DNA from: Escherichia coli
GTDB taxonomy: Bacteria > Pseudomonadota > Gammaproteobacteria > Enterobacterales > Enterobacteriaceae
Assembly (NCBI RefSeq): GCF_003334355.1
Contig: NZ_QOWP01000113.1
DNA length: 338 bases
Direction: 5' to 3' (one strand)
Position 1 is the first letter of the stretch. Each line of letters opens with the position of its first letter. Below the pieces are notes generated by a model. It saw nothing but the letters and a program-made list of their open reading frames with translations, was not told where the DNA came from and made no database searches. A program made the translations under genes and the position numbers. Positions 1 to 338 of the stretch are shown here, piece by piece.

Positions 1-338
1 CTCAGCATGTGGCCGGATAACCGTATCGCCCGTGACGCGCACTATCTTTACCGGTATGACCGTCACGGCAGGCTGACGGAGAAAACCGACCTCATCCCGG
101 AAGGGGTTATCCGCACGGATGATGAGCGCACCCACCGGTACCATTACGACAGTCAGCACCGGCTGGTGCACTACACGCGGACACAATATGCAGAGCCGCT
201 GGTCGAAAGCCGCTATCTTTACGACCCGCTGGGCCGCAGGGTGGCAAAACGGGTGTGGCGACGTGAACGGGACCTGACGGGCTGGATGTCGCTGTCACGG
301 AAACCGCAAGTGACCTGGTACGGCTGGGACGGCGACCG
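1..338 (+). CDS. rhs: Internal fragment (5' and 3' partial) of an Rhs-family YD-repeat protein, conserved core region of a polymorphic toxin; about 112 codons in frame 1
   Basis: Seen in sequence: frame 1 on the + strand has no stop codon across all 338 nt, while + frame 2 stops at TGA 74-76 and + frame 3 at TAA 18-20. The translation contains three YD-repeat motifs: [14 protein letters not shown] (nt 43-84), [12 protein letters not shown] (nt 139-174) and [14 protein letters not shown] (nt 214-255). Established knowledge: the run ...[41 protein letters not shown]... matches my recollection of the conserved Rhs core of E. coli RhsA/B/C-type proteins, upstream of the PxxxxDPxGL core/tip boundary. 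By hand count the GC content is about 62% (209/338), consistent with the known GC-rich Rhs core. Which paralog (rhsA/B/C/D/E or another species' copy) cannot be decided from 338 nt, so the symbol is the generic family prefix only. Confidence 0.92.

Follow-up and report, generated by a model that had tools for sequence, protein, structure and literature searches.

The question raised by this locus is whether a 338-nt stretch of Escherichia coli DNA (the window, by which we mean the whole stretch that was analysed) belongs to an intact rhs toxin gene or to an orphan fragment of one. Its own context cannot be read from it directly, because 338 nt carry no flanks and the same 338-mer also occurs in intact genes. 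An earlier sequence-only reading had assumed an intact gene. Based on the copies of the window in complete genomes, the best explanation overall is that the window lies in an orphan Rhs core fragment of the type annotated as ybfO in K-12, to which we assign a probability of about 0.75.

The window belongs to the conserved core of an E. coli clade-I rhs gene (rhsA/B/C/F subfamily). Frame 1 of the plus strand is the sole stop-free frame and provides 112 codons, with GC contents of 0.66, 0.46 and 0.74 at codon positions 1, 2 and 3, a coding pattern. The translated segment (window 1–338, plus strand) corresponds to residues 921–1032 of full-length RhsC-type proteins of ~1,400 aa and, by protein string match, to residues 28–139 of the truncated K-12 fragment in its PGAP annotation. 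It matched the NCBIfam RHS_core model NF041261 (E=7.3e-73; model positions 935–1046 of 1261) and the TIGR01643 YD_repeat model (E=2.8e-6; 27.6 bits against a cut-off of 15.8 bits). The NF041261 score of 246 bits lies below the whole-protein cut-off of 2,000 bits only because the window is 112 aa long; full-length alleles that carry the window reach 2,641–2,684 bits. The window alone could also be aligned to solved Rhs shells, namely residues 864–940 of Tse5 (PDB 8cp6; E=2.4e-7), the S. bongori Rhs core (8qjd) and P. protegens RhsA (7q97). The sequence-only reading had recognised an Rhs core with YD repeats in frame 1 and had proposed a profile search as a check; that search, run on the window, returned the significant Rhs core and YD-repeat matches given above, and this part of the reading is confirmed by both models and by the 8cp6 alignment.

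Within the window, the best-scoring YD-repeat unit spans positions 112–183 of the plus strand (aa 38–61; TIGR01643 YD_repeat_2x, E=2.8e-6; Pfam RHS_repeat over aa 44–61, E=0.19). Two weaker units on the same strand correspond to positions 46–90 (aa 16–30; Pfam RHS_repeat, i-E=0.016) and 208–246 (aa 70–82; i-E=5, alone not significant), the latter with the consensus YxYDxxGR when the sequence was read directly. All three Pfam RHS_repeat matches (aa 16–30, 44–61 and 70–82) are thus weak and sub-threshold (best E=0.016), as expected for so short a segment (112 aa) of degenerate repeats. The window contains core only and no tip, and it encodes late YD-repeat strands of the shell, the beta-cocoon in which Rhs proteins enclose their C-terminal toxin.

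A minus-strand ORF of 63 aa with a GTG start is present at window 107–298 and could be taken for an antisense gene, present together with or instead of the Rhs coding sequence, or the window could hold a structured RNA. We regard either as extremely improbable. Antisense ORFs are expected in coding DNA of 62% GC, substitutions between copies of the window follow frame 1 of the plus strand, no antisense gene is annotated at any of the loci inspected, and neither strand of the window gave an Rfam match at E<=1. Another antisense ORF, of 188 aa, overlaps the core on the minus strand of the K-12 locus (L001 9295–9861; loci inspected are numbered with the prefix L, L001 being that of K-12) and is regarded as a high-GC artefact.

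The window sequence is already known, as it is part of the K-12 reference annotation, and many complete E. coli chromosomes carry it at 100% identity. When 5,426 complete E. coli genomes were searched with the window, 3,882 gave a match, at a median of four places each; the sequence is therefore present in about 70% of complete genomes and matters little as a discovery. The matching places number 14,267 in total, two of them on plasmids. In K-12 MG1655 the sole exact copy (NC_000913.3 734214–734551) lies inside ybfO (b0703; 734220–735653), which is a curated pseudogene and not full-length rhsC. PGAP labels this copy as an RHS repeat-associated core domain-containing protein, “incomplete, missing N-terminus”. 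The ybfO ORF itself is intact and extends for 477 codons (L001 9007–10440) from an ATG at window 7–9 of the plus strand, the annotated ybfO start, which is an internal core Met codon in full-length alleles. Upstream of this ATG, no Shine-Dalgarno-like sequence was visible when the sequence was read directly.

The K-12 paralogues resemble the window to differing degrees. Base-by-base comparison with rhsC identified four differing sites (positions 78, 210, 255 and 261, spanning 78–261 of the plus strand; blastn identity 98.8%), all of which are synonymous. The rhsA and rhsB genes each differ at six sites on that strand (78, 129, 132, 191, 210 and 261; blastn 98.2%), five of them synonymous and the one at 191 replacing A with E. 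The more distant rhsD shows 81% identity, with 36 synonymous versus 16 non-synonymous codons. Differences from the paralogues are thus overwhelmingly synonymous, and the 112-residue protein is identical in RhsC (aa 921–1032), in the ybfO fragment and in the full-length alleles that carry the window. RhsC, RhsA and RhsB of K-12 belong to the same family and share the same core region, but they carry other tips, are followed by ybfB, yibA and yhhH, respectively, and have DPLGL in their boundary motif where the ybfO type has DSMGL. In contrast, the K-12 ybfO and ybfC pair downstream of rhsC-ybfB shares 100% nucleotide identity over the 338 bases of the window, with no sequence difference. Because even the protein sequence is identical, a window in the conserved core leaves a displaced orphan indistinguishable from an intact toxin gene; only flanks or synonymous sites specific to an allele can tell the two apart.

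The flanks in K-12 (L001) show the gene order kdpFABC (on the opposite strand), ybfA, rhsC, ybfB, a junction, the core fragment, ybfC and remnants of ISAs1 (H-repeat) elements. The rhsC gene is 4,194 nt long and ybfB encodes a very hydrophobic protein of 108 aa. Between ybfB and the orphan core fragment lies a 45-nt AT-rich junction, which reads ...AAATAAATTAAGTTAATTGCTCTTATTATTATATGTAAC / ...TAAATTAAGTTAATTGCTCTTATTATTATATGTAAC. Over L001 8563–8935, ybfB and the orphan core are in the same frame, separated only by a TAA stop and 10 AT-rich codons. The core fragment begins at rhsC codon 899, 66 nt upstream of window base 1, and its homology with rhsC extends over 1,044 nt (L001 8935–9978; 97.2% over 1,045 aligned columns). 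The ybfC gene (189 aa; L001 10437–11006) overlaps the ybfO stop codon and starts 1,099 nt past the window.

In every sequenced context, the core/tip boundary is located 644 nt downstream of window base 338. The boundary motif begins 205 codons past the last codon of the window and the tip 215 codons past it, which places the window start 327 codons upstream of the tip; measured from the 3' end of the window, the distance agrees with the sequence-only estimate of 150–250 codons. A DPxGL motif had been anticipated at this point. The motif is indeed present downstream, but the ybfO-type allele reads DSMGL: its boundary motif is PVQYIDSMGL, with Ser instead of the Pro of DPxGL, followed by the tip ASKYGHLNNGGYGARP (ASKYGH...). 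The corresponding motifs are PISNIDPLGL in RhsC and PVNSMDPLGL, followed by YEFKSKNIDD, in a gene at a further rhs locus, RhsF. PVQYIDSMGL is found at L001 9952–9981 in K-12 ybfO and also in the full-length alleles at L002 and L004; as orphan and full-length copies share it, it does not reflect pseudogene decay. Relatives of the YbfO tip have DSMGL, DSLGL, DALGL, DPMGL or DPKGL, which indicates that the boundary motif travels with the tip. The K-12 fragment also contains, outside the window, the Rhs-associated core domain (TIGR03696, E=8.8e-24; Pfam PF03527, E=1.8e-14).

GC content falls from 0.60–0.65 in both core stretches to about 0.44 in both tips and 0.33–0.39 in ybfB and ybfC, in accordance with the abrupt fall predicted to follow the core. 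The tips after the motif are unrelated among RhsA, RhsB, RhsC, RhsD, YbfO and the RhsF-locus gene, and the small gene ybfC follows the tip in every kdp-locus example. The anticipated divergent tip with a small downstream ORF was accordingly found within 1.1 kb, the ORF being ybfC or, at the other locus, dsORF-f3.

Analysis of further genomes revealed that the same 338-mer occurs in at least three contexts. In context (a), the ybfO orphan, it was verified in K-12, E2863 and 503025, and in two further strains the orphan is split by an insertion sequence, an IS3 in W5-6 and an IS21-family element in S1-CAM-02-A. All five strains have the arrangement of an orphan module of the rhs-CT/rhsI type. 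The orphan fragment has been struck repeatedly by insertion sequences (L003 8602–9764 and L012 7048–9355; also an IS1 in PigCaeca_1 and BDSF8-3).

In context (b), a single full-length rhs gene of 4,200 nt at the kdp-ybgA locus ends in the YbfO tip and is followed by ybfC, as in E2865 and ECCWS199; the tip of the orphan is thus carried by a full-length rhs gene in other strains. The 3' 1,506 nt of these genes are 99.8–100% identical to the orphans, with no mismatch between E2865 and the 503025 orphan, whereas the upstream core differs by 2–3% from every rhsC compared, in a mosaic pattern. Across the 2.7 kb of upstream core at L002 and L004 (5241–7934), we counted 0 to 34 differences per 500 nt, and the following segment (7935–9440) is conserved at 99.8–100%. 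We also compared SNP patterns to ask whether the full-length allele with the ybfO tip is ancestral or a recombinant between main gene and orphan; the 2–3% mosaic gave no clean crossover signature.

In context (c), the window lies in a full-length gene at the rpmE-yiiX/metJ locus, which carries an unrelated tip of 147 aa and is followed by dsORF-f3, a gene that marks the RhsF-type element. The exact 338-mer occupies positions 6001–6338 of both L011 and L013, within genes of 4,184–4,185 nt. ARS-C301 has an intact copy of the gene, and the copy in O177:H21 carries a frameshift. PGAP names this gene (L011 and L013 3241–7425) “rhsC” despite its different locus, tip and downstream gene. Since the exact 338-mer is common to the RhsF-type and kdp loci, gene conversion between paralogous cores is indicated. 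Full-length rhs genes are sometimes inactivated, as seen from an internal stop in rhsC of 503025 (L010 1370–5563) and from the RhsF-locus frameshift in O177:H21 (L011 3241–7424).

The frequencies of these contexts were estimated from 60 genomes evenly spaced along the ranking of matches, 27 of which have an exact copy, with only the best place per genome listed. Feature names served as a proxy for context, as NF041261 has a 2,000-bit cut-off that only full-length proteins exceed and that the fragment, at 767 bits, does not reach; the proxy was also checked at representative loci of each class. The name “RHS repeat-associated core domain-containing protein”, which denotes the truncated orphan, was found for 19 of the 27 exact copies, and “RHS element protein” or “RHS domain-containing protein”, which denote a doubly truncated fragment (an IS-split orphan at the two loci inspected, W5-6 and S1-CAM-02-A), for three. 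The full-length gene with a ybfO-type tip, “RHS element core protein”, accounted for two, and “rhsC”, denoting the full-length gene of the RhsF-type locus (two were inspected), for the remaining three. Names of truncated fragments thus apply to 22 of the 27 sampled exact matches (about 80%), counted at the best place per genome. A query composed of ybfB, the junction and the window, which represents the orphan junction, was covered to at least 80% in 2,643 of the 5,426 complete genomes. The N-terminal region of window-type copies is truncated in K-12 and for about 80% of the sampled exact matches, and complete in the E2865-type and RhsF-locus genes.

Based on these frequencies, we place at about 0.75–0.8 the probability that the sampled copy is the orphan, dissociated-tip form, an N-terminally truncated core fragment that corresponds to ybfO in K-12. 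With the exact K-12 copy lying in truncated ybfO and about 80% of sampled exact matches truncated, the earlier assumption of an intact gene is probably wrong. Alternatively, the source of the window could be an rhs gene at the kdp-ybgA locus that is intact and full-length, with a YbfO-type tip followed by ybfC, and that would make a working Rhs toxin. Genes of this kind do exist, since the exact 338-mer occurs in 4,200-nt “RHS element core protein” genes that score 2,641 bits against the 2,000-bit cut-off; this name was found for 2 of the 27 sampled and for 3 of the first 30 exact hits. The tip and ybfC were also found without the orphan junction in about 875 genomes (3,518 minus 2,643), which need not all have the exact 338-mer. 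The intact kdp-ybgA form nevertheless represents only a minority of exact hits (about 7–10%), and we consider this origin quite unlikely. We judge similarly improbable an origin from a full-length RhsF-type gene at the rpmE-yiiX/metJ locus, with the tip YEFKSKNIDD... and dsORF-f3 after it. Its exact copies at L011 and L013 and its share of the sample (3 of 27 exact hits) speak for this origin, but the context is again a minority, the gene is frameshifted in one of the two loci inspected, and an exact orphan copy may be present in RhsF-type genomes as well, given that only one place per genome was listed.

The sequence-only reading had further expected VgrG, PAAR or Hcp partners, an expectation that the surroundings of the window-type copies did not bear out. 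No vgrG, hcp or PAAR gene is annotated within 4–9 kb in the 10 loci inspected, where a distant T6SS partner is still possible, and the PAAR motif of a full-length allele (aa 3–20) is non-significant (E=0.23). The same allele contains DUF6531 at aa 46–123 and nine Pfam RHS_repeat matches at E<=0.001 within its N-terminal 700 aa. Among solved structures its best match is Tse5 (E=6.8e-126), and its closest solved relatives are T6SS effectors. P. aeruginosa Tse5 (8cp6), P. protegens RhsA (7q97) and S. bongori Rhs (8qjb-d) have the same YD-repeat cocoon, which is also common to the YD shells of TcB/TcC and teneurin. However, the solved T6SS Rhs effectors are linked to VgrG/PAAR and a T6SS, whereas the inspected E. 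coli loci are without such neighbours.

The tip of the ybfO-type copies, YbfO-CT, is the one most often found downstream of the window. It comprises 152 aa, and after it comes ybfC, presumed to be its immunity gene. Although 3,518 of the 5,426 complete E. coli genomes carry the pair, no activity is assigned to it: neither protein gave a match in Pfam, NCBIfam, PADLOC or PDB sequence searches, and in the literature on ybfO and ybfC we found only incidental mentions and no paper testing YbfO-CT toxicity or YbfC protection. Among 5.8 billion proteins, relatives of YbfO-CT form 28 clusters with 66–100% identity, all of them associated with Rhs. Their sources are Escherichia, Salmonella, Phytobacter and a few metagenomes, and none of the 28 has a Pfam domain over the tip. 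Invariant positions in the alignment are K71-P72-N73, Y84-P85, W101, C112-A113-E114 and F118/D120. An AlphaFold2 model of YbfO-CT built from a 14-sequence alignment was unusable (mean pLDDT 43.6, pTM 0.27).

The N-terminus of YbfC, read by eye, resembles a signal peptide (MKRVLFFLLMIFVSFGVIA/DC). YbfB (L001 8563–8889), also read by eye, is hydrophobic over nearly its whole length and seems to cross the membrane about three times. An envelope location is thus suggested for both presumed immunity proteins, a hint that the two tips act outside the cytoplasm. The signal-like start of YbfC suggests that YbfO-CT is probably envelope- or periplasm-directed, and the conserved cysteines of the tip are a further reason for this reading. 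More tentatively, and with less than an even chance in our view, YbfO-CT may be a periplasm or envelope toxin of unrecognised fold and activity that is naturally exchanged with RhsC-CT by core recombination, yielding alleles of the E2865 type.

Published descriptions of Rhs architecture, of displaced tips and of orphan modules go back to 2009–2014. Dissociated tips keep a core fragment, consistent with C-terminal displacement (Jackson 2009, PMC2935791), and rhs-CT/rhsI modules are known to exist as orphans (Poole 2011, PMC3150448). Orphans lack translation-initiation and export signals and become deployable after recombination with the main gene (Koskiniemi 2014, PMC3967940). In Salmonella LT2, an orphan was activated by recombination between main gene and orphan, which share 522 bp at 95% identity (Koskiniemi 2014, PMC3967940). 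The rhs locus of Salmonella Typhimurium LT2 (STM0291/STM0292) is a close parallel in arrangement, as it likewise has a full-length rhs gene, an immunity gene and a truncated core with another tip and its own immunity gene. The LT2 main/orphan homology can mediate fusion and is shorter than that described here (522 bp at 95% versus 1,044 bp at 97%). The LT2 locus differs in belonging to clade II/III and adjoining the SPI-6 T6SS, and activity and recombination have been shown for LT2 only and not for the E. coli locus.

By analogy with this work on other species, the ybfO-type copy may be a silent store of a displaced tip with toxin and immunity functions. Insertion of the RhsC tip and ybfB would have displaced the orphan fragment, which lies directly after rhsC-ybfB. 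The orphan form lacks the secretion/shell N-terminus, a ribosome-binding site is not evident in it, and the window would not be part of a working protein. It would instead form part of the 1,044-bp, 97%-identical recombination substrate shared with the adjacent full-length rhsC. If the orphan and full-length rhsC crossed over, the stored YbfO-CT tip would become joined to a complete Rhs protein, and ybfC would meanwhile protect against neighbours that already deploy YbfO-CT.

The orphan might, on the other hand, not be silent but be expressed from internal promoters and an internal start, with YbfO-CT and YbfC acting as an intracellular type II toxin-antitoxin pair. An orphan rhs of Salmonella Typhimurium has been shown to act as a type II toxin-antitoxin, and E. 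coli was likewise reported to have the P2 promoter upstream of Rhs toxins (Starsta 2020, PMC7043789). The intact 477-codon ORF that starts with the ATG at window 7–9 is compatible with such expression, another start nearer the tip is also conceivable, and the overlap of ybfC with the ybfO stop suggests co-translation. Against this, the ATG is without a preceding Shine-Dalgarno-like sequence, a promoter scan identified no promoter-like site in the window, and in Salmonella the internal promoter is found just upstream of the DPxGL region, a position far downstream of the window. The four promoter-like sites at the ybfB/orphan junction are uninformative next to the 2.2 +/- 1.3 expected. The signal-peptide-like N-terminus of YbfC, as read by eye, also fits a delivered toxin acting in the periplasm better than a cytoplasmic pair. 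We regard internal toxin-antitoxin expression of the orphan as possible, albeit rather unlikely, and do not favour it over a silent orphan.

Past ybfC, the K-12 locus contains three ISAs1-family (H-repeat) transposase remnants, ybfQ, ybfL and ybfD (L001 11232–13637). The number of H-repeat remnants varies by strain, and E2865 and E2863 retain only ybfD. The K-12 pseudogenes yibJ, after rhsA, and ylbH, after rhsD, are also annotated.
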